Assembly (NCBI GenBank): GCA_951406725.2
Contig: OX597822.1
Location: 2,666,001-2,730,000 of the forward strand
Source of the DNA: Octopus vulgaris
Taxonomy: Eukaryota
Direction: 5' to 3'
Length of the DNA stretch: 64,000 nt
This document shows positions 1 to 21,795 of this stretch, one piece after another. The notes beneath the pieces are model-generated. The model worked only from the letters and a program-made list of their open reading frames with translations, made no database searches and was not told where the DNA came from. The position numbers and the translations under genes were made by a program. Each line of letters starts with the position of its first letter. Within the stretch, counting starts at the first letter, position 1.

Positions 1-2148
1 AACCTTTGCTCCTGCCACCGCCTCGTAGCTTTTGATGGCCTCTTCTACCACTGGAAGCTGGCCTTCGTCTGCCACGATGAATGAGGTGTCATCCGCATAC
101 GCCGTAGCTCCTCTTCCACACCATAGGTCATGCGGCGCGCCCACTAGTGCCTCCAATTTCCGCAGCAAAGGCTCAAGAGCCAATACGTATAGGAGCGAGG
201 ACAGGGGACACCCTTGACGAACTGAACGCTCGATCCTGAACGGCTTCGAAAAGGAACCGTTCACCTTGACTACAGACTCGATGTCGCTATACAAAGCAGC
301 GATCCAACCTCGAAAGGTCGGGCCTAGGCCAGCCTCTCCGAGGACCGCCGCCAGGTACCGATGGTCGACCCTATCAAATGCTTTGGACTGGTCTAAATGT
401 ACCAGTGCTCCCCCTGCGCCAGAAAGCTTCCCCACCCTCTCTAAGGAGTAGCGTATAAGGTGGAGATTGTCGTGGATCGTTCTGCCGGGGATAGCGCACG
501 TTTGCGCTTCCCCGACAAGTTTGTCCACGACCCGCGCCAACCTTTTTGCTAGCACCTTGGCCAGAATCTTAAACTCTGTGTTTAACAGAGTTATGGGCCT
601 GAAGTTCCCTATCTCGTCCCCCTTGTTCGGGTCCTTCCTGATCAACGTCACCGCCCCCCGGCTCGCAGACTTGGGAATTCTCCCATTCTGCTGCCAGTTG
701 GCGTAGACGCTAGCCAGCAGGTGCCCGAACAAGTCTGGCATACTTCTATAAAATTCATAGGGCAGACCATCGAGACTCGGCGACTTCTCCCCGGGGCACT
801 TGCCCAACCCCTCGATTACTTACTCGGCTGTGATTGACCCTTCACAGCACTCAGCCTCTCGTGTCGAGAGGCGCGGGCCACCAGACAGGAAGTCCCTAAG
901 GGCCTCACCATGATCCAGCGTCCCGCACCTCCCGAACAACTCGGCGAAGTGCTTGTAAAGTGCCTCACACATCTCGTCCCGCTTCTTGATCGTGCATCCG
1001 TTTTCATCAACAAGAGACCCAATTGTGGAATCGTTTCCACGCTGTGTTTCTATCGTACGGGCCCATCCGGCAACATTAATTCCCTCACGGCCCAATGCTC
1101 GTACTTTAGCCCGGACTCTACATCCCTCATGTTTGGTTTTGAGGTGACGGTCTAATGCCGTTCTCGCCGCTAAAATGTGAGATGCAGAGCCCAACCTCAA
1201 CGCCTCCTCTAAGTTCTTAACTAGTTGCCCTTCTATTCTAACCCTATCTAGTCTTAGTTGTTTACTAAATCTAATGGACTCGAATCGAATGGCTCTTTTG
1301 AGGGTGAACCACCACCTGTTATTAACCACGGCTCCGGTTAACGCCCTCTGCACTAACACCTTAATGCGGCTACGGTATACCTCGCGTGTCAAAATAGACT
1401 TGTTCAGCTTCCAGTAGCCGGTTCCTATCTTAAGTGTGCTATCTATGTCCAGTCTACACGTGACCATTCTATGGTCAGTATAGGGCACCTGGACGAGCAG
1501 TGGACAACTAAAACTAGACTTATCTCTAGTTCTTATCACTATCCTGTCTAGATAAGACTTGAACCTTCCGTTGCCACTCATCCAGGTCCACTCTGGGACG
1601 TTCGGATGGTCAAGTCTGTAACGATCTGCCAGCTGAAACCGCTTAAGCAGATCCACGAGACGTGAGTTCACTTTCCTATAGATCGAGCCAACGCTATCGA
1701 TGTGTACGTCAACGATAGCATTAAAGTCCCCTAATATCATTAAAGTCTTCGACGTCACGAGAAAGCCCTCTAGGCGCCGATAAAAATCAGTTTGGAAACC
1801 TCTAGCACAAGGTGCATAGAGTCCGATCAACCTGAAGGCCTTACTGCTCTATGTCACATCAAGGACGACCAGCCCACCTTCTGGGTCTACATAGACTGTA
1901 CTTGTCTGTAGAGCGAAGTCTTTACGGATCAGTACCACTACGCCCCCTCGCCCTCCGGTCTGGCCAGGAGACATGATTTTCTCGTAGCCATTCAGGAGAG
2001 GCGAGAAGGTTTGTAGGCTGTCCAGCTTGGTCTCTGTAGCAACCATCACATGTATATCATGTGATCTGAGGTCGTCGAGGAAACAAGCCTGCTTCCACTT
2101 CGAACTCAGACCACGCACATTTAAACAACCAAGGTTAAGCGAAGCCAT
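1..2148 (-). pseudogene. Tx1 ORF2 (APE endonuclease + RT), copy 1, disrupted
   Basis: NVRGL, ATETK, YAP, GDFN, SYLDR, TDH motifs; in-frame TAG at 1849-1851 and a copy-specific TAA at 820-822. Confidence 0.9.
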
Positions 2149-2433
2149 TACAAAAAGTAAAAGTTCTACTTACATTTCGTTGGAGAGGTGGGGGCCGACC
2201 TCACCACACATTTGTGGGCCCCTTCTTTCTCCTCTTTCTTCAGATAGTCCGGCAAGTTCGCGATATGCCGGATGGCGTTTGGGTGTCTGTCTTTTAATTG
2301 TTTGAACGTTGTTTATGCAATCCACGCGTGTCTATTTCGATCTTTGTATTTGTTGTACAGTCTTGCTGACTGATGCTGAACCACAATATCATTTATGTAT
2401 TTGTCTTGTGTGTCGAATTCAATTAATATGAGT

Positions 2434-3567
2434 TCATTTTCTTTTTTGTCTTCTTTTTCTGGGCCTGTTGAGCGGGATTTTTTTCCGTGTCTGTGGTGTG
2501 TCTTTGTTTTTATTATTTTTTGTAGGGGATGTGGACGGGGATGCTGCACGAATTCTTTTACGAACTGGTGTAAATCCCCCCTCTGATACCTCCATGGTAT
2601 CGTCTGGGGTGGCAATGGTTTGTTCGGTAGGCGCCGCAGTTTTTAGTGGGGTGGGAGATTTTAATAGTGTAGGGGTTTGTGAGTGCGAGGGCTGGGTTTT
2701 TTCTTCAGTCTGTTTTGGGGTTGGCACCGTAACAGCGGGAGTGGGATTTTTTGTTTTTGTAGGGGTAGGTGTGTTTGCAAGGGTAGGAACTTTTTTATTA
2801 TCTGAGGGGCCTGGTGTCTGCGGTTTCTTTTGCTTGTCTGGACAGTCTACACGAATGTGGCCCTTTTTGCCGCAGGCGTAACAGGTGGGTTTTCGGCCTT
2901 CGACCTGTACCCTGAGGGCTACGTTCTCTCCCACGAGCATCCTCTCAGGAAGGAGCTGCAGGTCCTCCGCTATTCCTTGAATTAATATATTAATGTTACG
3001 CCCGAGCCAAAATCGAGGGGTAGAGCATATTACTTCTAGTATTTTTATTTTGTCCGCCCTTTTATATAACAGGGCGGCCACTACCTCTACCGGATCTACT
3101 TCCGGCGGGGCTTCAACAATCCTGACCCGGGACGTCCTGCGTCCCCTATAGCTTGGGAAAAGTACCACCTCCTTGGTTTTTAGGGGGTTCACAGAATGCC
3201 CGCGGGCCATTTCTTCCCCCGAGAAGCGGACATCCACAGTGCCATATGCCCGTCCCCTGGCGACGTACACGATGTCCTTCCAAATCGGGGACAGGCATTT
3301 CTCGATGGTGCTTTTTTCAAGGTGTTTGAACCTTCTGCTTTGTGGACAGAAAGTTTTAAACACTACGGTCCGCTTCTCGGTCTCCACGATACTGGCGGAG
3401 GGTGATATTTTAACATCACCACCCTCCTCTTGCATTCTTTTAAATAGCTCGACGAGCTGGTTGACATCGATGTCAATTTTCTCGGTAGCCACTGCGGCTA
3501 CCTCAGAAAATTTTTTAACATTGCTCTCCTCAAGAGCACTACTTTCGTGAATAATTTCAACAGACAT
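2434..3567 (-). CDS. Tx1 ORF1, Gag-like nucleic-acid-binding protein, copy 1
   Basis: ATG at 3567 (MSVEIIHESS); CYACGKKGHIRVDC = CX2CX4HX4C knuckle; Pro/Thr-rich linker; ancestral frame probably continued to TAG at 2166-2168. Confidence 0.8.
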   Translation of the reverse strand: MSVEIIHESSALEESNVKKFSEVAAVATEKIDIDVNQLVELFKRMQEEGGDVKISPSASIVETEKRTVVFKTFCPQSRRFKHLEKSTIEKCLSPIWKDIVYVARGRAYGTVDVRFSGEEMARGHSVNPLKTKEVVLFPSYRGRRTSRVRIVEAPPEVDPVEVVAALLYKRADKIKILEVICSTPRFWLGRNINILIQGIAEDLQLLPERMLVGENVALRVQVEGRKPTCYACGKKGHIRVDCPDKQKKPQTPGPSDNKKVPTLANTPTPTKTKNPTPAVTVPTPKQTEEKTQPSHSQTPTLLKSPTPLKTAAPTEQTIATPDDTMEVSEGGFTPVRKRIRAASPSTSPTKNNKNKDTPQTRKKIPLNRPRKRRQKRK

Positions 3568-3957
3568 TATTCTGTTGAAATTAGACAACACAAAAATTAC
3601 GAGTATTGGCTTCCCACAAAACTGGGAAACCTATAGAAAGTTTTTCTTCCAAAGTAGTTCAAAAAAGCAGTTCAAAAATTCCAATTCCCACCCCCATTCG
3701 GGGGAGGGGCACGAAAATAGTCTGGCAGGACTATGTATAGTCACGTGAATAAAAAGCCACAGTGGCTAACAGTTCAACGGTAAGAAATTATTCAATTATT
3801 TCCCGGTAAAAATCGGAGAACAAGACAGTTCAGCAACGTTTAAAGGCAAATTTTCAGTAGTAGGAATTCAACAATTAACAACACAGCAAAACTCTTACCG
3901 GGAAGAAAACGCGTCCAAACCTTAGTACGGTAGGCAAAGTCACTCTTCTGTCAGTGA

Positions 3958-3974
3958 GGTTAGCAAAGCTACTT
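3958..3974. repeat. 17-bp inter-unit spacer / putative target-site duplication GGTTAGCAAAGCTACTT
   Basis: Identical at 3958-3974, 9412-9428 and 14867-14883; resembles SINE-B head GGTAAGCAAGCTACTT (21757-21772). Confidence 0.8.
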
Positions 3975-4202
3975 TATTTCATATAATTTGCCATTTAGGC
4001 ATTTACAAAGAGGGGACAAACAAGGACAGACAAATATAAAGGGTGAAGTAGCTTAACACAGTTACAATTTTCGAATGAAATTACGGATAAGATTATAAAC
4101 AATGAATTTTACGAAGGCAATGTTTAAAAATATTAATGATCATGTCGAAGGACGGACACCCAGCCATCCGGGTAGAACCTTTACTTTCTGATCCGGTCAC
4201 AC

Positions 4203-7200
4203 TTACCTGGTGCCAAACATACCCATCTTGTATGCCACAGGCTTCCATCTTTTCACAAACATATCTCGTGACAGACACCTCTTCTCCAGCCTGATTTTGC
4301 TACTGAGGTGGTAACTAAAAAAGTTAATCAACTCCTGGCCGGAGACAAAGGTGCCTGTCACTATACCTTTCGTACGCGTCTTCCATACTGTTTCTTTCAG
4401 TATGGCTACTACACAGAAAAAACAAGCCTTTCTTTCCCTGTTAAGGAAAGGGGGCGGCACAATCTCGATGATAGACTCAGCTGATAGCTGTACTCTTCCC
4501 ATCACTGACAACAGTTGTTCTACAAAAGCTATCAGTCCCGATAACTCCGGACACTCCACGAATGCGTGCAAGACGGTCTCCCTATTCTGCTCACATCGCG
4601 GGCATGTCGGCGAGACGGCACTACCGTGCCTTGACAGCTTGTCGCGAACAGGTAAAGCCGCACGGAAACATTGCCAGGCTAGGGATTTCTGGTAATTATC
4701 CAGATACCCCGGCCCGAACGTCCTCCGGAACAGGTTGATCAACTGATTTTCATCGTAGACCAGGGTCTCCCCCAAGGCGTCTTCGGACTTAATCTCCACT
4801 AACCCGCTATAGAAATCCGTGGTGGAACTCCTGTTGCCGGCGTTGCCCACCCGAGATAGTAGCTGGAGCGCCTGACGGCACTCCAAATGCCATTCACTCA
4901 GTTTAGGTTTCCGCTTGATCCATGCACCGATGTCCGTTAGGGATGTTAACTGGGGAAGGTAGAACCGGACGTGCGGCGACCACACCTGCTCTCCATCCAG
5001 GTAAAGCCAGAGGTGCCTCAACCTTAACGCGAGTTTTCGCATCCTCAGCCAAGGCATCCCTAGCCCACCCTTTAGCGGTTTCTGGCAGCAGACAGAGCGC
5101 TTTACAAGTGGCTTTCCTCCTTTCCACAAAAATCGGAAAAGGATTCTCTCCAACTTGTTCAGCCACAAATCGGGGCAAGGCACCACGGTCAGACGGTAGG
5201 TGATTACTGATGCTATAAACATCTGCACCACCTCCGCCTTCCCTAGCAGGGATAACGCCCGCCCAGACCAGGTCTGGGTTAGAGCGGTCACCTTGTTGGC
5301 CACCTCACTCCAATTTTTTTCAATCTGGAGGTCTGGCCCGAACCAGACTCCGAGCAGCTTAACAGGACCTTCCGTCCAACGCCCTACGACATTATTGGAC
5401 GGCATCGGCTTGCCCCTCCAGGTGCCGAGTTGCAAACCAACCGACTTGTCCTTGTTAACCTTTGCTCCTGCCACCGCCTCGTAGCTTTTTATGGCCTCTT
5501 CCACCACTGGAAGCTGGCCTTCGTCTGCCACGATGATGGAGGTGTCATCCGCATACGCCGTAGCTCCTCTTCCACACCATAGATCATGCGGCGCGCCCCT
5601 AGTGCATCCAACTTCCGCAGCAAAGGCTCAAGAGCCAATACGTATAGGAGCGAGGACAGGGGACACCCTTGACGAACTGAACGCTCGATCCTGAACGGCT
5701 TCGAAAAGGAACCGTTCACCTTGACTACAGACTCGATGTCGCTATACAAAGCAGCGATCCAACCTCGAAAGGTCGGGCCTAGGCCAGCCTCTCCGAGGAC
5801 CGCCGCCAGGTACCGATGGTCGACCCTATCAAATGCTTTGGACTGGTCTAAATGTACCAGTGCTCCCCCTGCGCCAGAAAGCTTCCCCACCCTCTCTAAG
5901 GAGTAGCGTATAAGGTGGAGATTGTCGTGGATCGTTCTGCCGGGGATAGCGCACGTTTGCGCTTCCCCGACAAGTTTGTCCACGACCCGCGCCAACCTTT
6001 TTGCTAGCACCTTGGCCAGAATCTTGAACTCTGTGTTTAACAGAGTTATGGGCCTGAAGTTCCCTATCTCGTCCCCCTTGTTCGGGTCCTTCCTGATCAA
6101 GGTCACCGCCCCCCGGCTCGCAGACTTGGGAATTCTCCCATTCTGCTGCCAGTTGGCGTAGACGCTAGCCAGCAGGTGCCCGAACAAGTTTGGCATACTT
6201 CTATAAAATTCATAGGGCAGACCATCGAGACCCGGCGACTTCTCCCCGGGGCACTTGCCCAACACCTCGATTACTTCCTCGGCTGTGATTGGCCCTTCAC
6301 AGCACTCAGCCTCTCGTGTCGAGAGGCGCGGGCCACCAGACAGGAAGTCCCTAAGGGCCTCACCATGATCCAGCGTCCCGCACCTCCCGAACAACTCGGC
6401 GAAGTGCTTGTGGAGTGCCTCACACATCTCGTCCCGCTTCTTGATCGTGCATCCGTTTTCATCAACAAGAGACCCAATTGTGGCATCGTTTCCACGCTGT
6501 GTTTCTATCGTACGGGCCCATCCGGCAACATTAATTCCCTCACGGCCCAATGCTCGTACTTTAGCCCGGACTCTACATCCCTCATGTTTGGTTTTGAGGT
6601 GACGGTCTAATGCCGTTCTCGCCGCTAAAATGTGAGATGCAGAGCCCAACCTCAACGCCTCCTCTAAGTTCTTAACTAGTTGCCCTTCTATTCTAGCCCT
6701 ATCTAGTCTTAGTTGTTTACTAAATCTAATGGACTCGAATCGAATGGCTCTTTTGAGGGTGAACCACCACCGGTTATTAACCACGGCTCCGGTTAACGCC
6801 CTCTGCACTAACACCTTAATCCGGCTACGGTATGCCTCGCGTGTCAAAATAGACTTGTTCAGCTTCCAGTAGCCGGTTCCTATCTTAAGTGTGCTATCTA
6901 TGTCCAGTCTACACGTGACCATTCTATGGTCAGTATAGGGCACCTGGACGAGCTGTGGACAACTAAAACTAGACTTATCTCTAGTTCTTATCACTATCCT
7001 GTCTAGATAAGACTTGAACCTTCCGTCGCCACTCATCCAGGTCCACTCTGGGACGTTCGGATGGTCAAGTCTGTAACGATCTGCTAGCTGAAACCGCTTA
7101 AGCAGATCCACGAGACGTGAGTTCACTTTCCTATAGATCGAGCCAACGCTATCGATGTGTACGTCAACGATAGCATTAAAGTCCCCTAATATCACTAAAG

Positions 7201-7603
7201 TCTTCGACGTCACGAGAAAGCCCTCTAGGCGCCGATAAAAATCAGTTTGGAAACCTCTAGCACAAGGTGCATAGAGTCCGATCAACCTGAAGGCCTTACT
7301 GCTCTATGTCACATCAAGGACGACCAGCCCACCTTCTGGGTCTACATAGACTGTACTTGTCTGTAGAGCGAAGTCTTTACGGATCAGTACCACTACGCCC
7401 CCTCGCCCTCCGGTCTGGCCAGGAGACATGATTTTCTCGTAGCCATTCAGGAGAGGCGAGAAGGTTTGTAGGCTGTCCAGCTTGGTCTCTGTAGCAACCA
7501 TCACATGTATATCATGTGATCTGAGGTCGTCGAGGAAACAAGCCTGCTTCCACTTCGAACTCAGACCACGCACATTTAAACAACCAAGGTTAAGCGAAGC
7601 CAT
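4203..7603 (-). pseudogene. Tx1 ORF2 (APE-RT-zf-RVT), copy 2
   Basis: SPGLDGL, FRPITLLN, DQSKAFDRVDH, VRQGCPLS, YADD, C-terminal CPRC...ETVLHAFVEC; TAG at 7304-7306; 1-bp deletion in a C run near 5597. Confidence 0.92.
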
Positions 7604-7888
7604 TACAAAAAGTAAAAGTTCTACTTACATTTCGTTGGAGAGGTGGGGGCCGACCTCACCACACATTTGTGGGCCCCTTCTTTCTCCTCTTTCTTCAGAT
7701 AGTCCGGCAAGTTCGCGATATGCCGGATGGCGTTTGGGTGTCTGTCTTTTAATTGTTTGAACGTTGTTTATGCAATCCACGCGTGTCTATTTCGATCTTT
7801 GTATTTGTTGTACAGTCTTGCTGACTGATGCTGAACCACAATATCATTTATGTATTTGTCTTGTGTGTCGAATTCAATTAATATGAGT

Positions 7889-9021
7889 TCATTTTCTTTT
7901 TTGTCTTCTTTTTCTGGGCCTGTTGAGCGGGATTTTTTTTCCGTGTCTGTGGTGTGTCTTTGTTTTTATTATTTTTTGTAGGGATGTGGACGGGGATGCT
8001 GCACGAATTCTTTTACGAACTGGTGTAAATCCCCCCTCTGATACCTCCATGGTATCGTCTGGGGTGGCAATGGTTTGTTCGGTAGGCGCCGCAGTTTTTA
8101 GTGGGGTGGGAGATTTTAATAGTGTAGGGGTTTGTGAGTGCGAGGGCTGGGTTTTTTCTTCAGTCTGTTTTGGGGTTGGCACCGTAACAGCGGGAGTGGG
8201 ATTTTTTGTTTTTGTAGGGGTAGGTGTGTTTGCAAGGGTAGGAACTTTTTTATTATCTGAGGGGCCTGGTGTCTGCGGTTTCTTTTGCTTGTCTGGACAG
8301 TCTACACGAATGTGGCCCTTTTTGCCGCAGGCGTAACAGGTGGGTTTTCGGCCTTCGACCTGTACCCTGAGGGCTACGTTCTCTCCCACGAGCATCCTCT
8401 CAGGAAGGAGCTGCAGGTCCTCCGCTATTCCTTGAATTAATATATTAATGTTACGCCCGAGCCAAAATCGAGGGGTAGAGCATATTACTTCTAGTATTTT
8501 TATTTTGTCCGCCCTTTTATATAACAGGGCGGCCACTACCTCTACCGGATCTACTCCGGCGGGGCTTCAACAATCCTGACCCGGGACGTCCTGCGTCCCC
8601 TATAGCTTGGGAAAAGTACCACCTCCTTGGTTTTTAGGGGGTTCACAGAATGCCCGCGGGCCATTTCTTCCCCCGAGAAGCGGACATCCACAGTGCCATA
8701 TGCCCGTCCCCTGGCGACGTACACGATGTCCTTCCAAATCGGGGACAGGCATTTCTCGATGGTGCTTTTTTCAAGGTGTTTGAACCTTCTGCTTTGTGGA
8801 CAGAAAGTTTTAAACACTACGGTCCGCTTCTCGGTCTCCACGATACTGGCGGAGGGTGATATTTTAACATCACCACCCTCCTCTTGCATTCTTTTAAATA
8901 GCTCGACGAGCTGGTTGACATCGATGTCAATTTTCTCGGTAGCCACTGCGGCTACCTCAGAAAATTTTTTAACATTGCTCTCCTCAAGAGCACTACTTTC
9001 GTGAATAATTTCAACAGACAT
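7889..9021 (-). pseudogene. Tx1 ORF1, copy 2 (frameshift near 8554)
   Basis: Same protein as copy 1, split over ORFs 8551-9117 and 7889-8536. Confidence 0.85.
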
Positions 9022-9411
9022 TATTCTGTTGAAATTAGACAACACAAAAATTACGAGTATTGGCTTTCCCACAAAACTGGGAAGCCTATAGAAAGTTTTT
9101 CTTCCAAAGTAGTTCAAAAAAGCAGTTCAAAAATTCCAATTCCCACCCCCATTCGGGGGAGGGGCACGAAAATAGTCTGGCAGGACTATGTATAGTCACG
9201 TGAATAAAAAGCCACAGTGGCTAACAGTTCAACGGTAAGAAATTATTCAATTATTTCCCGGTAAAAATCGGAGAACAAGACAGTTCAGCAACGTTTAAAG
9301 GCAAATTTTCAGTAGTAGGAATTCAACAATTAACAACACAGCAAAACTCTTACCGGGAAGAAAACGCGTCCAAACCTTAGTACGGTGGCAAAGTCACTCT
9401 TCTGTCAGTGA

Positions 9412-9428
9412 GGTTAGCAAAGCTACTT
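9412..9428. repeat. 17-bp inter-unit spacer / putative TSD, second junction
   Basis: GGTTAGCAAAGCTACTT followed by TATTTC (3' end of next unit). Confidence 0.8.
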
Positions 9429-9656
9429 TATTTCATATAATTTGCCATTTAGGCATTTACAAAGAGGGGACAAACAAGGACAGACAAATATAAAGGGTGA
9501 AGTAGCTTAACACAGTTACAATTTTCGAATGAAATTACGGATAAGATTATAAACAATGAATTTTACGAAGGCAATGTTTAAAAATATTAATGATCATGTC
9601 GAAGGACGGACACCCAGCCATCCGGGTAGAACCTTTACTTTCTGATCCGGTCACAC

Positions 9657-12600
9657 TTACCTGGTGCCAAACATACCCATCTTGTATGCCACAGGCTTCC
9701 ATCTTTTCACAAACATATCTCGTGACAGACACCTCTTCTCCAGCCTGATTTTGCTACTGAGGTGGTAACTAAAAAGTTAATCAACCCCTGGCCGGAGACA
9801 AAGGTGCCTGTCACTATACCTTTCGTACGCGTCTTCCATACTGTTTCTTTCAGTATGGCTACTACACAGAAAAAACAAGCCTTTCTTTCCCTGTTAAGGA
9901 AAGGGGGCGGCACAATCTCGATGATAGACTCAGCTGATAGCTGTACTCTTCCCATCACTGACAACAGTTGTTCTAACAAAAGCTATCAGTCCCGATAACT
10001 CCGGACACTCCACGAATGCGTGCAAGACGGTCTCCCTATTCTGCTCACATCGCGGGCATGTCGGCGAGACGGCACTACCGTGCCTTGACAGCTTGTCGCG
10101 AACAGGTAAAGCCGCACGGAAACACTGCCAGGCCAGGGATTTCTGGTAATTATCCAGATACCCCGGCCCGAACGTCCTCCGGAACAGGTTGACCAACTGA
10201 TTTTCATCGTAGCCCAGGGTCTCCCCCAAGGCGTCTTCGGACTTAATCTCCACTAACCCGCTATAGAAATCCGTGGTGGAACTCCTGTTGCCGGCGTTGC
10301 CCACCCGAGATAGTAGCTGGAGCGCCTGACGGCACTCCAAATGCCATTCACTCAGTTTAGGTCTCCGCTTGATCCATGCACCGATGTCCGTTAGGGATGT
10401 TAACTGGGGAAGGTAGAACCGGACGTGCGGCGACCACACCTGCTCTCCATCCAGGTAAAGCCAGAGGTGCCTCAACCTTAACGCGAGTTTTCGCATCCTC
10501 AGCCAAGGCATCCCTAGCCCACCCTTTAGCGGTTTCTGGCAGCAGACAGAGCGCTTTACAAGTGGCTTTCCTCCTTTCCACAAAAATCGGAAAAGGATTC
10601 TCTCCAACTTGTTCAGCCACAAATCGGGGCAAGGCACCACGGTCAGACGGTAGGTGATTACTGATGCTATAAACATCTGCACCACCTCCGCCTTCCCTAG
10701 CAGGGATAACGCCCGCCCAGACCAGGTCTGGGTTAGAGCGGTCACCTTGTTGGCCACCTCACTCCAATTTTTCTCAATCTGGAGGTCTGGCCCGAACCAG
10801 ACTCCGAGCAGCTTAACAGGACCTTCCGTCCAACGCCCTACGACGTTATTGGACGGCATCGGCTTGCCCCTCCAGGTGCCGAGTTGCAAACCGACCGACT
10901 TGTCCTTGTTAACCTTTGCTCCTGCCACCGCCTCGTAGCTTTTGATGGCCTCTTCCACCACTGGAAGCTGGCCTTCGTCTGCCACGATGATGGAGGTGTC
11001 ATCCGCATACGCCGTAGCTCCTCTTCCACACCATAGATCATGCGGCGCGCCCCCTAGTGCCTCCAACTTCCGCAGCAAAGGCTCAAGAGCCAATACGTAT
11101 AGGAGCGAGGACAGGGGACACCCTTGACGAACTGAACGCTCGATCCTGAACGGCTTCGAAAAGGAACCGTTCACCTTGACTACAGACTCGATGTCGCTAT
11201 ACAAAGCAGCGATCCAACCTCGAAAGGTCGGGCCTAGGCCAGCCTCTCCGAGGACCGCCGCCAGGTACCGATGGTCGACCCTATCAAATGCTTTGGACTG
11301 GTCTAAATGTACCAGTGCTCCCCCTGCGCCAGAAAGCTTCCCCACCCTCTCTAAGGAGTAGCGTATAAGGTGGAGATTGTCGTGGATCGTTCTGCCGGGG
11401 ATAGCGCACGTTTGCGCTTCCCCGACAAGTTTGTCCACGACCCGCGCCAACCTTTTTGCTAGCACCTTGGCCAGAATCTTGAACTCTGTGTTTAACAGAG
11501 TTATGGGCCTGAAGTTCCCTATCTCGTCCCCCTTGTTCGGGTCCTTCCTGATCAAGGTCACCGCCCCCCGGCTCGCAGACTTGGGAATTCTCCCATTCTG
11601 CTGCCAGTTGGCGTAGACGCTAGCCAGCAGGTGCCCGAACAAGTTTGGCATACTTCTATAAAATTCATAGGGCAGACCATCGAGACCCGGCGACTTCTCC
11701 CCGGGGCACTTGCCCAACACCTCGATTACTTCCTCGGCTGTGATTGGCCCTTCACAGCACTCAGCCTCTCGTGTCGAGAGGCGCGGGCCACCAGACAGGA
11801 AGTCCCTAAGGGCCTCACCATGATCCAGCGTCCCGCACCTCCCGAACAACTCGGCGAAGTGCTTGTGGAGTGCCTCACACATCTCGTCCCGCTTCTTGAT
11901 CGTGCATCCGTTTTCATCAACAAGAGACCCAATTGTGGCATCGTTTCCACGCTGTGTTTCTATCGTACGGGCCCATCCGGCAACATTAATTCCCTCACGG
12001 CCCAATGCTCGTACTTTAGCCCGGACTCTACATCCCTCATGTTTGGTTTTGAGGTGACGGTCTAATGCCGTTCTCGCCGCTAAAATGTGAGATGCAGAGC
12101 CCAACCTCAACGCCTCCTCTAAGTTCTTAACTAGTTGCCCTTCTATTCTAGCCCTATCTAGTCTTAGTTGTTTACTAAATCTAATGGACTCGAATCGAAT
12201 GGCTCTTTTGAGGGTGAACCACCACCGGTTATTAACCACGGCTCCGGTTAACGCCCTCTGCACTAACACCTTAATCCGGCTACGGTATGCCTCGCGTGTC
12301 AAAATAGACTTGTTCAGCTTCCAGTAGCCGGTTCCTATCTTAAGTGTGCTATCTATGTCCAGTCTACACGTGACCATTCTATGGTCAGTATAGGGCACCT
12401 GGACGAGCTGTGGACAACTAAAACTAGACTTATCTCTAGTTCTTATCACTATCCTGTCTAGATAAGACTTGAACCTTCCGTCGCCACTCATCCAGGTCCA
12501 CTCTGGGACGTTCGGATGGTCAAGTCTGTAACGATCTGCTAGCTGAAACCGCTTAAGCAGATCCACGAGACGTGAGTTCACTTTCCTATAGATCGAGCCA

Positions 12601-13058
12601 ACGCTATCGATGTGTACGTCAACGATAGCATTAAAGTCCCCTAATATCACTAAAGTCTTCGACGTCACGAGAAAGCCCTCTAGGCGCCGATAAAAATCAG
12701 TTTGGAAACCTCTAGCACAAGGTGCATAGAGTCCGATCAACCTGAAGGCCTTACTGCTCTATGTCACATCAAGGACGACCAGCCCACCTTCTGGGTCTAC
12801 ATAGACTGTACTTGTCTGTAGAGCGAAGTCTTTACGGATCAGTACCACTACGCCCCCTCGCCCTCCGGTCTGGCCAGGAGACATGATTTTCTCGTAGCCA
12901 TTCAGGAGAGGCGAGAAGGTTTGTAGGCTGTCCAGCTTGGTCTCTGTAGCAACCATCACATGTATATCATGTGATCTGAGGTCGTCGAGGAAACAAGCCT
13001 GCTTCCACTTCGAACTCAGACCACGCACATTTAAACAACCAAGGTTAAGCGAAGCCAT
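9657..13058 (-). pseudogene. Tx1 ORF2, copy 3
   Basis: All APE, RT and zinc-finger motifs present; TAG at 12759-12761; +1 indel near 9975. Confidence 0.92.
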
Positions 13059-13222
13059 TACAAAAAGTAAAAGTTCTACTTACATTTCGTTGGAGAGGTG
13101 GGGGCCGACCTCACCACACATTTGTGGGCCCCTTCTTTCTCCTCTTTCTTCAGATAGTCCGGCAAGTTCGCGATATGCCGGATGGCGTTTGGGTGTCTGT
13201 CTTTTAATTGTTTGAACGTTGT

Positions 13223-14476
13223 TTATGCAATCCACGCGTGTCTATTTCGATCTTTGTATTTGTTGTACAGTCTTGCTGACTGATGCTGAACCACAATATC
13301 ATTTATGTATTTGTCTTGTGTGTCGAATTCAATTAATATGAGTTCATTTTCTTTTTTGTCTTCTTTTTCTGGGCCTGTTGAGCGGGATTTTTTTCCGTGT
13401 CTGTGGTGTGTCTTTGTTTTTATTATTTTTTGTAGGGGATGTGGACGGGGATGCTGCACGAATTCTTTTACGAACTGGTGTAAATCCCCCTCTGATACCT
13501 CCATGGTATCGTCTGGGGTGGCAATGGTTTGTTCGGTAGGCGCCGCAGTTTTTAGTGGGGTGGGAGATTTTAATAGTGTAGGGGTTTGTGAGTGCGAGGG
13601 CTGGGTTTTTTCTTCAGTCTGTTTTGGGGTTGGCACCGTAACAGCGGGAGTGGGATTTTTTGTTTTTGTAGGGGTAGGTGTGTTTGCAAGGGTAGGAACT
13701 TTTTTATTATCTGAGGGGCCTGGTGTCTGCGGTTTCTTTTGCTTGTCTGGACAGTCTACACGAATGTGGCCCTTTTTGCCGCAGGCGTAACAGGTGGGTT
13801 TTCGGCCTTCGACCTGTACCCTGAGGGCTACGTTCTCGCCCACGAGCACCCTCTCAGGAAGGAGCTGCAGGTCCTCCGCTGTTCCTTGAATTAATATATT
13901 AATGTTACGCCCGAGCCAAAATCGAGGGGTAGAGCATGTTACTTCTAGTATTTTTATTTTGTTCGCCCTTTTATATAACAGGGCGGCCACTACCTCTACC
14001 GGATCTACTTCCGGCGGGGCTTCAACAATCCTGACCCGGGACGTCCTGCGTCCCCTATAGCTTGGGAAAAGTACCACCTCCTTGGTTTTTAGGGGGTTCA
14101 CAGAATGCCCGCGGGCCATTTCTTCCCCCGAGAAGCGGACATCCACAGTGCCATATGCCCGTCCCCTGGCGACGTACACGATGTCCTTCCAAATCGGGGA
14201 CAGGCATTTCTCGATGGTGCTTTTTTCAAAGTGTTTGAACCTTCTGCTTTGTGGACAGAAAGTTTTAAACACTACGGTCCGCTTCTCGGTCTCCACGATA
14301 CTGGCGGAGGGTGATATTTTAACATCACCACCCTCCTCTTGCATTCTTTTAAATAGCTCGACGAGCTGGTTGACATCGATGTCAATTTTCTCGGTAGCCA
14401 CTGCGGCTACCTCAGAAAATTTTTTAACATTGCTCTCCTCAAGAGCACTACTTTCGTGAATAATTTCAACAGACAT
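13223..14476 (-). CDS. Tx1 ORF1, copy 3
   Basis: CCHC knuckle; C-terminus differs from copy 1 because of a C-run indel near 13490. Confidence 0.78.
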   Translation of the reverse strand: MSVEIIHESSALEESNVKKFSEVAAVATEKIDIDVNQLVELFKRMQEEGGDVKISPSASIVETEKRTVVFKTFCPQSRRFKHFEKSTIEKCLSPIWKDIVYVARGRAYGTVDVRFSGEEMARGHSVNPLKTKEVVLFPSYRGRRTSRVRIVEAPPEVDPVEVVAALLYKRANKIKILEVTCSTPRFWLGRNINILIQGTAEDLQLLPERVLVGENVALRVQVEGRKPTCYACGKKGHIRVDCPDKQKKPQTPGPSDNKKVPTLANTPTPTKTKNPTPAVTVPTPKQTEEKTQPSHSQTPTLLKSPTPLKTAAPTEQTIATPDDTMEVSEGDLHQFVKEFVQHPRPHPLQKIIKTKTHHRHGKKSRSTGPEKEDKKENELILIEFDTQDKYINDIVVQHQSARLYNKYKDRNRHAWIA

Positions 14477-14866
14477 TATTCTGTTGAAATTAGACAACAC
14501 AAAAATTACGAGTATTGGTTTCCCACAAAACTGGGAAACCTATAGAAAGTTTTTCTTCCAAAGTAGTTAAAAAAAGCAGTTCAAAAATTCCAATTCCCAC
14601 CCCCATTCGGGGGAGGGGCACGAAAATAGTCTGGCAGGACTATGTATAGTCACGTAAATAAAAAGCCAGAATGGCTAACAGTTCAACGGTAAGAAATTAT
14701 TCAATTATTTCCCGGTAAAAACCGGAGAACAAGACAGTTCAGCAACGTTTAAAGGCAAATTTTCAGTAGTAGGAATTCAACAATTAACAACACAGCAAAA
14801 CTCTTACCGGGAAGAAAACGCGTCCAAACCGTAGTACGGTAGGCAAAGTCACTCTTCTGTCAGTGA

Positions 14867-14905
14867 GGTTAGCAAAGCTACTTACCACACAGCCACTCCT
14901 GCGTC
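14867..14905 (-). mobile_element. 5' head remnant of tRNA-derived SINE-B interrupted by the Tx1 array
   Basis: GCTACTTACCACACAGCCACTCCTGCG matches the intact SINE head at 21757-21795; A-box-like TGGCTGTGTGG on minus strand. Confidence 0.85.
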
Positions 14906-15072
14906 TTAGATGGATAAATGTTTGTGTGATGATGTATGTGGCATATATATATGTATGTGTTTTCTGATTAAACGGTTTGTAAAAGTATTTTTCAGAGTGT
15001 AGGCATGTGCGTGTGTGTATGCGTTTGTAAACTGATGTATTTTTTCTGCAATATATATATATATATATTATC

Positions 15073-19465: not shown

Positions 19466-20190
19466 TTCCCATGGGAAATAACTTTATCCTGTCGACGATA
19501 ATGTCAGCGCTGGATTCCAACAGAAGGCAGCCACAACATGTTTCCATCCATTCTAGATTTCGTAATCGACTGTTGTTTCTTGATCAAGTCGTTAACCCTA
19601 GCTATGAGTGAGAGTTAAATCTCGGCGGAATTTGAATTCACAACTCAAATAATCAGAATATATGCTCTGATATGTTCGTTAATCCACCGTCTTCAACCTG
19701 TGCTTTAACTCTTGCCTCTGAGCATGACGAAAGCAAGGAGGCACACTGTGGCATCTGAACTCAGAGCGCGCAGACAGTCAGCAAACGGAAAATTTTCAAA
19801 TGACAATCTAGTCCATCTGTCGAGTTTAACGTTGTCCAAGGAATTATTAAAAAAAAAAATAAGCATCCCAATATACATATGAATCTATAAAAATGGATAA
19901 AAGGACAAAAAGAAAGACAGAAAGGAAAATAGAGGGAAAGAAAGAAAAGGAAATCAAGAGAAAGGGACCTGAAAGTTATATTCGTTCATTGGCGATGATT
20001 GAAGACAGTGACTAGGATTACTTGAGACTACTTCGAGAGAGAATGCATCCATGCAATGGGTCAGAGAAATTGTCCTATTCCTATGCCCCTAACGATTCTA
20101 CCATCAGAATGAATTGAAGCGAACTTCATTAAATTTGGAATTGAGCAAAAGTATATAAAGCTAAATCTTTGATAATATTTGCCATAAAGA

Positions 20191-20765
20191 AGGTGGCGAG
20201 CTGGCAGAAACGTTAGCAGGCCGGGCGAAATGCTTTGCGGTATTTCGTCTGCCGCTACGTTCTGAGTTCAAATTCCACCAAGGTCGACTTTCGGGGTCGA
20301 TAAATTAAGTACCAGTTACGCACTGGGGTCATTGTATTCGACTTAATCCCTTTGTCTGTCCTTGTTTGTCCCCTCTATGTTTAGCCACTTGTGGGCCATA
20401 AAGAAATAAGAAACGTTAGCACACCGAGCGAAATGCTTAGCAGTATTTCGTCTACCGCTACGTTCTGAGTTCAAATTCCGCCGAGGTCGATTTGCCTTTC
20501 ATCCTTTCGGGGTCAATTAAATAAATACCAGTTACACACTGGGGTCGATATAATCGACTTAATCCGTTTGTCTGTCCTTATTTGTCCTCTGTGGGTAGTA
20601 AAGAAATAGGTATTTCGTCTGTCTTTACGTTCTCAGTTCAAATTCCGCTGAGGTCGACTTTGCCTTTCCTCATTTGGGGTCGATAAATGAAGTACTGCGG
20701 TCGATCTAATCGACTGGTCCCATCCCCCAAAATTCCGAGCCTTGTTCCCAGAGTAGAAATGAATA
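20191..20765 (+). mobile_element. SINE-A trimer (three head-to-tail monomers)
   Basis: Three CGTTCTGAGTTCAAATTCC...GTCGAC-type cores; monomers 1 and 2 end in the Tx1-like tail plus TAAAGAAATA. Confidence 0.85.
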
Positions 20766-21404: not shown

Positions 21405-21795
21405 TACTCTTTACTCTTCTACTTGTTTCAGTCATTTGACTGTGGCCATGATGGAACACTGCCTTTAGTCGAGCAAATCGACCCCAAGACTTAGTCTTTG
21501 TAAGCCTAGTACTTATTCTATCGGTCTCATTTGCCGAACCGCTAAGTTACCAGCATCGGTTGTCAAGCGATTTTGCGGGGAGAAACACAGACACACAAAC
21601 ACACACACACACACACACACATACATATATACGACAAGCTTCTTTCAGTTTCCGTCTACCAAATCCACTCACAAGGCTTTGGTCGGCCCGAGGCTATAGT
21701 AGAAGACACTTGACCAAGATGCCACGCAGTGGGACTGAACCCCGAACCATGTGGTTGGTAAGCAAGCTACTTACCACACAGCCACTCCTACGTCT
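21405..21795 (-). mobile_element. SINE-B, full length (tRNA-derived head, internal (CA)n, CR1-like tail)
   Basis: A-box TGGCTGTGTGG and B-box GGTTCAGTCCC on minus strand; many copies in window. Confidence 0.88.

Follow-up and report, generated by a model that had tools for sequence, protein, structure and literature searches.

A LINE lineage inserted at a single base of an abundant tRNA-like SINE in the genome of Octopus vulgaris

The window analyzed here, a 64,000-nucleotide stretch of the 2.8-Gb genome of Octopus vulgaris (G000:C9:2666001-2730000), begins with a head-to-tail array of long interspersed nuclear elements (LINEs) whose units are separated by a 17-nucleotide (nt) spacer; at the outer end of the array, this 17-mer continues as the head of a short interspersed nuclear element (SINE). 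The locus raises the question of whether this LINE family uses an abundant SINE, or the parent tRNA of that SINE, as its target, as the preliminary description of the window had proposed. The flanks of the element ends, tabulated genome-wide, strongly support the SINE: a lineage of LINEs that targets a single base of the SINE throughout the genome, together with passengers that encode only the first open reading frame (ORF1), is real. We regard it as highly probable that the LINE enters one fixed base of this abundant tRNA-like SINE genome-wide, likely through an endonuclease that recognizes the sequence.

Target site across the genome

Specificity was measured with an element-internal 24-mer located in the 3′ untranslated region (UTR), which contains no target bases, and also via the endonuclease protein. 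The 24-mer has 108 exact matches in the genome, 104 of which were inspected. Rather than random flanks, 103 of these 104 3′ ends show the terminal AAATA followed by AAGTAG at the same base. Beyond this point, 94 run into the SINE body (93 by alignment score and L045 by eye) and six lead on into another element's 5′ end, whereas in L151 and L190 the SINE body is lost shortly past the AAGTAG motif. L178 is a non-SINE site with the same first nine target bases, and such a near-cognate insertion points to sequence read-out. A family has been considered target-specific when more than 20% of its flanks fall in one sequence class (PMC4494074), to be compared with the 94 of 104 that enter the SINE here.

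The 5′ ends of the same copies were resolved as full length in 80 cases and are truncated or interrupted in 22; the other two, at locus edges, are copies 2 and 3 of the array, which are full length in the window. The 80 full-length copies follow either the SINE head (71 copies, 67 by pattern and four by eye) or the 3′ end of another element (nine copies), and the 17-mer is not a constant part of the 5′ end at non-SINE loci. At least 53,949 exact empty sites were counted with a 33-mer of the empty SINE site; accordingly, we estimate the chance of random insertion at that base and strand at about 1/100,000, or about 1/10,000 if the SINE were ten times more abundant.

Subfamilies with an endonuclease identity as low as about 72% still use the same target base. 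Among 15 older copies (73-89% endonuclease identity), five keep the 3′ end; AAGTAG follows in all five and the SINE body in four, and the older copy L266 agrees with the AAGTAG site. The young family and the older copies together form one clade (100/100).

Insertion mechanism and choice of the site

A true 16-bp duplication of the copy's own target is present in four truncated copies (L076, L167, L178 and L183, with one mismatch in L167), from which the second nick is placed at 16 nt downstream. Where the downstream target of a full-length copy has T at position 13, the 5′ side carries TAACC in all 23 informative cases, so that the end of the spacer is element-borne in full-length copies; spacers of 17 nt occur at 16 of these 23 sites and at 11 of the 53 others (76 copies). 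Variants among the first 11 positions of the target persist at the 5′ side in L145, L150 and L168 but not in L165 and L179. The spacer, initially described as host-SINE sequence, is a host/element hybrid, with approximately the first 9-11 bases derived from the SINE and the last bases from the element. In the window, the array 17-mer differs from its own downstream target 16-mer by one extra base and by different last positions (L281). There was no sign that read-through RNA overwrites the 3′ duplication (subtype discordance p=0.67).

A plausible sequence of events can be proposed. The APE domain would nick the bottom strand just before AAGTAG, reverse transcription would start at the AAATA end, and the top strand would be cut 16 nt downstream. 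The RNA would begin a few bases within the left duplication of the donor, and the finished cDNA would anneal to the 3′ overhang by homology; such homology-assisted 5′ joining would account for the precision of the 5′ ends, for the large share of full-length copies and for the base added where target and leader mismatch. Each insertion would rebuild the target, permitting more elements to stack head to tail, and the ORF1-only elements with the same terminal motif would likely borrow ORF2p. For an HDV-like ribozyme, as in R2-like 5′ processing, a scan of the 5′ UTR (14480-14910) against Rfam gave four weak hits and no ribozyme family; no custom motif search was run.

Several points weigh against sequence recognition by the endonuclease in the form outlined here. 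One insertion of the 104 (L188) is off target; ten of the 15 older copies have no recognizable 3′ end, and the site is unscored there; and most of the 22 copies not resolved as full length are without a clean duplication. The nicking, the strand order and the 5′ end of the RNA are features that we infer from the junctions. The Tx1 label is assigned from the architecture and not from placement in a tree with named references. Finally, the mosaic pattern of the window array (see below) could be an artefact of assembly or polishing.

It is conceivable, although unlikely, that the element RNA helps to choose the site, with an antisense motif in the 3′ UTR pairing with target DNA or read-through RNA. 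At 80 nt from the 3′ end there is a 9-mer exactly antisense to the first nine bases of the target, the sole such 9-mer in 5437 nt, a match reached by 12 of 3000 shuffles. Of 23 tail clusters, 16 contain a version of 6-9 nt, among them ORF1-only families whose tails are unlike, and, with the duplication read through, the motif closes a predicted stem (-16.6 vs -6.9 kcal/mol). However, the motif is missing from the other seven clusters, some of which are very short or carry deletions, and the three sister lineages with recurrent sites of their own (B, C and D, see below) offer antisense matches of only 4-5 nt. Covariation of the motif with the target was found in none of these three lineages, so that a change of motif with site is not confirmed. 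A broader proposal, in which the RNA would carry an address at both ends (the target-like 5′ leader and the 3′ antisense motif), site choice and full-length joining would be partly RNA-directed and retargetable, and the passengers would keep this address, likewise appears doubtful.

The SINE head contains an A-box-like motif. The insertion point is directly 3′ of this motif, in agreement with the location originally given for the spacer, and separates it from a B-box-like motif. This position would suit targeting of the Dictyostelium TRE5-A kind, in which Pol III factors bound to the SINE promoter tether the element, in place of sequence read-out, as would the preference of occupied sites for one SINE subtype (49:8 vs 13:17 in empty copies, p=5e-5), a bias that is weaker against the 61:39 counted by hand in the first 100 empty sites among the matches listed. 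However, tethered elements insert at a distance and not at a fixed base (PMC3706591). Given also the single-base precision of insertion, the hit at the non-SINE near-cognate site L178 and the re-use of spacers inside arrays, where there is no intact promoter, tethering seems very improbable.

Still harder to sustain is the possibility that the true or ancestral target is a tRNA gene and that the SINE is hit as a look-alike. The SINE head does resemble a tRNA: its best match among 36 tRNA sequences sampled is tRNA-Lys(TTT), with a score of 54 vs a shuffled maximum of 33.8 +/- 3.7 (top 48, 200 shuffles), and ARAGORN at a lowered threshold calls one of two SINE heads. Nevertheless, none of the 104 3′ ends, with flanks read, runs into a tRNA gene, and the target motif is present in none of the 36 sampled sequences, tRNA-Lys(TTT) included, so the parent tRNA proposed as an alternative target is not supported. 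Rfam does not call the SINE head a tRNA, scans of the SINE loci and of the head returning only microsatellite noise or weak hits, and ARAGORN predicts no genes in the window. The host SINE may correspond to OK (tRNA-Lys). Three octopus SINE families, OK, OR1 and OR2, are cited in PMC4758252. Copies of the host SINE frequently have (TA)n at their borders, for example at 21620-21640 of the window.

Movement of SINE and LINE as a composite, or segmental duplication of a single old insertion, would account for the SINE head upstream and SINE body downstream of nearly all full-length copies but is rejected as scarcely credible, because the flanking SINE bodies are about 3.4 times as divergent as the elements (mean p 0.088 vs 0.026 for element tails in 88 copies; SINE distance greater in 372 of 400 sampled pairs), which argues for independent insertions into pre-existing, diverged SINEs, and because both SINE subtypes are hit, the same base is used by truncated copies, older subfamilies and ORF1-only families, and the flanks beyond the SINE head are unrelated.

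The array in the window and the coding capacity of the family

The array was first described as at least three head-to-tail units of about 5455 bp with the 17-mer at every junction; in the assembly, it consists of exactly three LINE copies of about 5.44 kb, all on the minus strand, and the spacing of the units is 5454 and 5455 bp at 99.0-99.4% identity (Table 1). The exact 17-mer is present at all three junctions, compared with a chance mean of 0.06 in shuffles even with three mismatches allowed. The head into which the outer 17-mer was said to continue matches the intact copy at 21757-21795 by 92.5%. The rest of the SINE was found where it had been predicted, beyond the left edge of the window. 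Copy 1 stops approximately 1,446 bp past this edge and is directly adjoined by the remaining SINE body, so that a single SINE is interrupted by exactly three copies.

Table 1. Features of the LINE array and of related repeats, in window coordinates
Feature	Position	Strand	Remark
LINE copy 1, 5′ two-thirds	1..3957	-	continues left to ~G000:C9:2664555, then SINE body (L031, L281)
17-nt spacer, first part target-derived, last part element-borne	3958..3974	-	
LINE copy 2, full length, mosaic (5′ like copy 1, 3′ like copy 3)	3975..9411	-	
17-nt spacer	9412..9428	-	
LINE copy 3, full length 5438 bp, end AAATA, no poly(A)	9429..14866	-	
ORF1 of copy 3, CCHC zinc knuckle, frameshifted	13076..14476	-	lower end inferred from L152
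ORF2 of copy 3, APE endonuclease + RT + zf-RVT, broken	9657..13058	-	lower end inferred from copy 2
Premature stop, endonuclease region, three copies	12759..12761, 7304-7306, 1849-1851	-	
3′ UTR 9-mer antisense to first nine target bases	9500..9508, also 4046-4054	-	
Outer 5′ spacer	14867..14883	-	
Host SINE head with A-box-like motif; insertion point directly 3′ of it	14884..14903	-	
Uninterrupted host SINE copy (approximate ends), empty-site reference	21631..21795	-	
30-nt 3′ UTR segment common to tail of second abundant SINE	4005..4034	-	20351-20380, 24516, 24701

The three copies form one clade with variants missing from 60 other aligned full-length copies. In its 5′ part, copy 2 has eight variants in common with copy 1, and in its 3′ part five with copy 3; no variants are exclusive to copies 1 and 3. 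The premature stop of the three array copies is found in none of the 60 other copies, and at this position four public runs from three organisms read another base. No array copy is coding-intact. The trimer is a dead mosaic and likely arose from a stacked pair by unequal exchange, as the mosaic pattern of copy 2 suggests; polishing error would fit this pattern as well. The public sequencing runs gave only short contigs, none of them across the array or its outer junction.

Coding capacity is retained elsewhere in the genome. ORF1 contains a CCHC zinc knuckle (PF00098, E 1.8e-5) and in its intact form encodes 466 amino acids (L152). ORF2, of 1133 amino acids in the intact copy, has RVT_1 and zf-RVT domains above the cut-off and, in split pieces, an Exo_endo_phos domain just below it; the catalytic residues of the endonuclease align with those of the L1 endonuclease. 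The closest solved protein to ORF2 is L1 ORF2p (E 1e-66; R2, E 2e-19), the closest named protein is an ORF of Argonauta hians (63% in the reverse transcriptase region), and no named Tx1 reference is among the homologues found in the atlas and homologue searches. Among the 60 full-length copies, eight retain an ORF2 frame of 1140 codons or more and two keep both ORFs; the young copies are about 80% full length, their ends being precise, and the family looks recently active from its sequences. The preliminary description called for a repaired APE domain in a nicking assay; naturally intact copies exist, so that no repair is needed.

Sequencing runs from three coded organisms contain the element, and no RNA run does among the public runs listed. 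Among the listed contigs, one (X12, organism B) bridges the element-SINE junction as judged by a 31-letter rule; in contigs of X1 and X13 fewer letters extend across it, and the two X16 element contigs stop there. A metagenome scan for flanks of a distant homologue gave 70 pattern matches, none of them confirmed.

Passengers, sister lineages and known systems

A degenerate terminal motif followed by AAGTAG marks 875 junctions genome-wide; this pattern contains target bases and counts junctions, and is no measure of specificity. Many sampled junctions belong to elements of 1.5-2.25 kb that have a distant ORF1 and no ORF2. These passengers stack head to tail in mixed arrays, both among themselves and with the full element (L263, L279, L154 and L186); at L261-L262 (G000:C1:223.69-223.72 Mb), seven 2-kb ORF1-only units are stacked with a full element. 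Mixed arrays cannot be made by simple duplication, which indicates that target regeneration is real. Hence the original explanation of the arrays by regeneration of the target holds for the mixed-family arrays elsewhere, whereas the trimer of the window itself looks recombination-amplified. The passenger ORF1 is about 25-44% identical to that of the full element and the 5′ ends are different, so that the passengers are not simple deletion derivatives of this LINE family.

Additional observations concern the passengers and their junctions. A second, inverted stack lies near L261-L262. A passenger of about 100 bp, internally deleted to its 5′ and 3′ ends, uses the same site (L214/L275), and two 3′ junctions in opposite orientation are 49 bp apart at G000:C1:111116893-111116966. 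The 5′ ends of some passenger families (L079, L160, L161 and L263) carry TGCGCATG-type palindromes that resemble NRF1 sites, which suggests internal Pol II promoters in the passengers.

Among the targets described for Tx1 families are DNA transposons, LTR elements, snRNA, 5S, satellites and microsatellites (PMC4494074). The transposon-targeting families include Tx1L in Tx1D of Xenopus, the crocodilian Tx1-Mar in Mariner-N4_AMi, Tx1-9_AMi in Harbinger, and Tx1-8_Crp and Tx1-4_AMi in LTR elements (PMC4494074). The octopus element is similar in being a two-ORF APE LINE with a fixed site in a transposon, tandem stacking and non-autonomous passengers. It differs from the families in that paper in that the target is a SINE head with so many empty sites, in the proportion of ends at the site (103 of 104, against the 20% threshold used there), and in that its passengers encode ORF1 whereas theirs are snRNA-headed SINEs. 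Keno in U2, Mutsu in 5S, Dewa in the tRNA-Leu spacer and Kibi/Koshi in microsatellites (PMC4494074; PMC3706591) also show Tx1-type sequence-specific insertion into multicopy sequence, although the octopus target is a dispersed selfish retroposon and not an RNA gene cluster or a microsatellite.

Other systems share individual traits. For R2, precise 5′ junctions are correlated with target sequence co-transcribed at the 5′ end (PMC6795142); the octopus element would likewise have RNA-borne target sequence at this end and has no poly(A) tail, but it has an APE domain instead of a restriction-like nuclease, a leader of about 5-8 nt, as judged from the junctions, and no Rfam ribozyme hit. HAL1, HeT-A and Ag-Sponge are ORF1-only LINEs (PMC5786205). 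The passengers resemble them in size (1.5-2.25 kb), in having ORF1 and lacking ORF2, and in sharing the 3′ terminal motif with an autonomous LINE, but are site-specific and form mixed arrays with their autonomous partner; their ORF1 identity and 5′ ends speak against derivation from that partner by internal deletion. Dada DNA transposons enter tRNA genes with 6-7-bp duplications (PMC8869645; PMC3706591). Insertion at or near a Pol III A box and the occasional replacement of the duplication by another sequence are common to Dada and the octopus LINE, whereas Dada are DNA transposons with shorter duplications and reside in real tRNA genes.

A LINE described as targeting a SINE was not found in the literature searched, Repbase lying outside this search, so that prior annotation there is possible. 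An octopus repeat annotation reports 13 recently active L1-Tx1 families, and the word "target" does not occur in the available part of that text (PMC13282606). The usual LINE-SINE relation is inverted here, a LINE lineage landing in a dispersed SINE with its own ORF1-only passengers on top; the SINE may serve as a safe harbour or low-cost landing site. With intact copies and a high proportion of full-length insertions with precise ends, the system is directly testable and of interest for site-specific gene insertion, and hundreds of SINE copies interrupted at one base matter for repeat annotation.

Sister lineages at 58-66% endonuclease identity have other recurrent sites, found in 8/8 copies of B, in 6/8 of C and in 3/4 of the D copies with a 3′ end. 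A hairpin of the endonuclease is conserved in the SINE-targeting clade and different in these lineages, and it aligns with the L1 loop grafted from Tx1L. In that graft into L1, the loop alone did not transfer specificity (PMC1950540). Related lineages with other sites and other hairpins provide a natural series for how APE endonucleases gain or switch specificity. The young lineage B (L381-L387, L400 and L401; ORF2 frames of 1140 codons) occupies a fixed site in another short repeat, with a 16-bp duplication and with tandem copies on C2. The young lineage C (L388-L395, L399 and L402) occupies a single site within another element and is arranged in long tandem arrays, with six copies at about 5.28-kb spacing on C5. 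The older lineage D comprises L346, L396, L397 and L349.

A second abundant SINE has a tail (20351-20380, 24516 and 24701 in the window) that can be aligned to the 3′ UTR found in this LINE group, the best alignment being with lineage D (L346 and L349), and from this sequence similarity a relative may be the mobilizing partner of the second SINE. The window stretch 20190-20620 has copies of the second SINE nested within the heads of other such copies, with two positions recurring.

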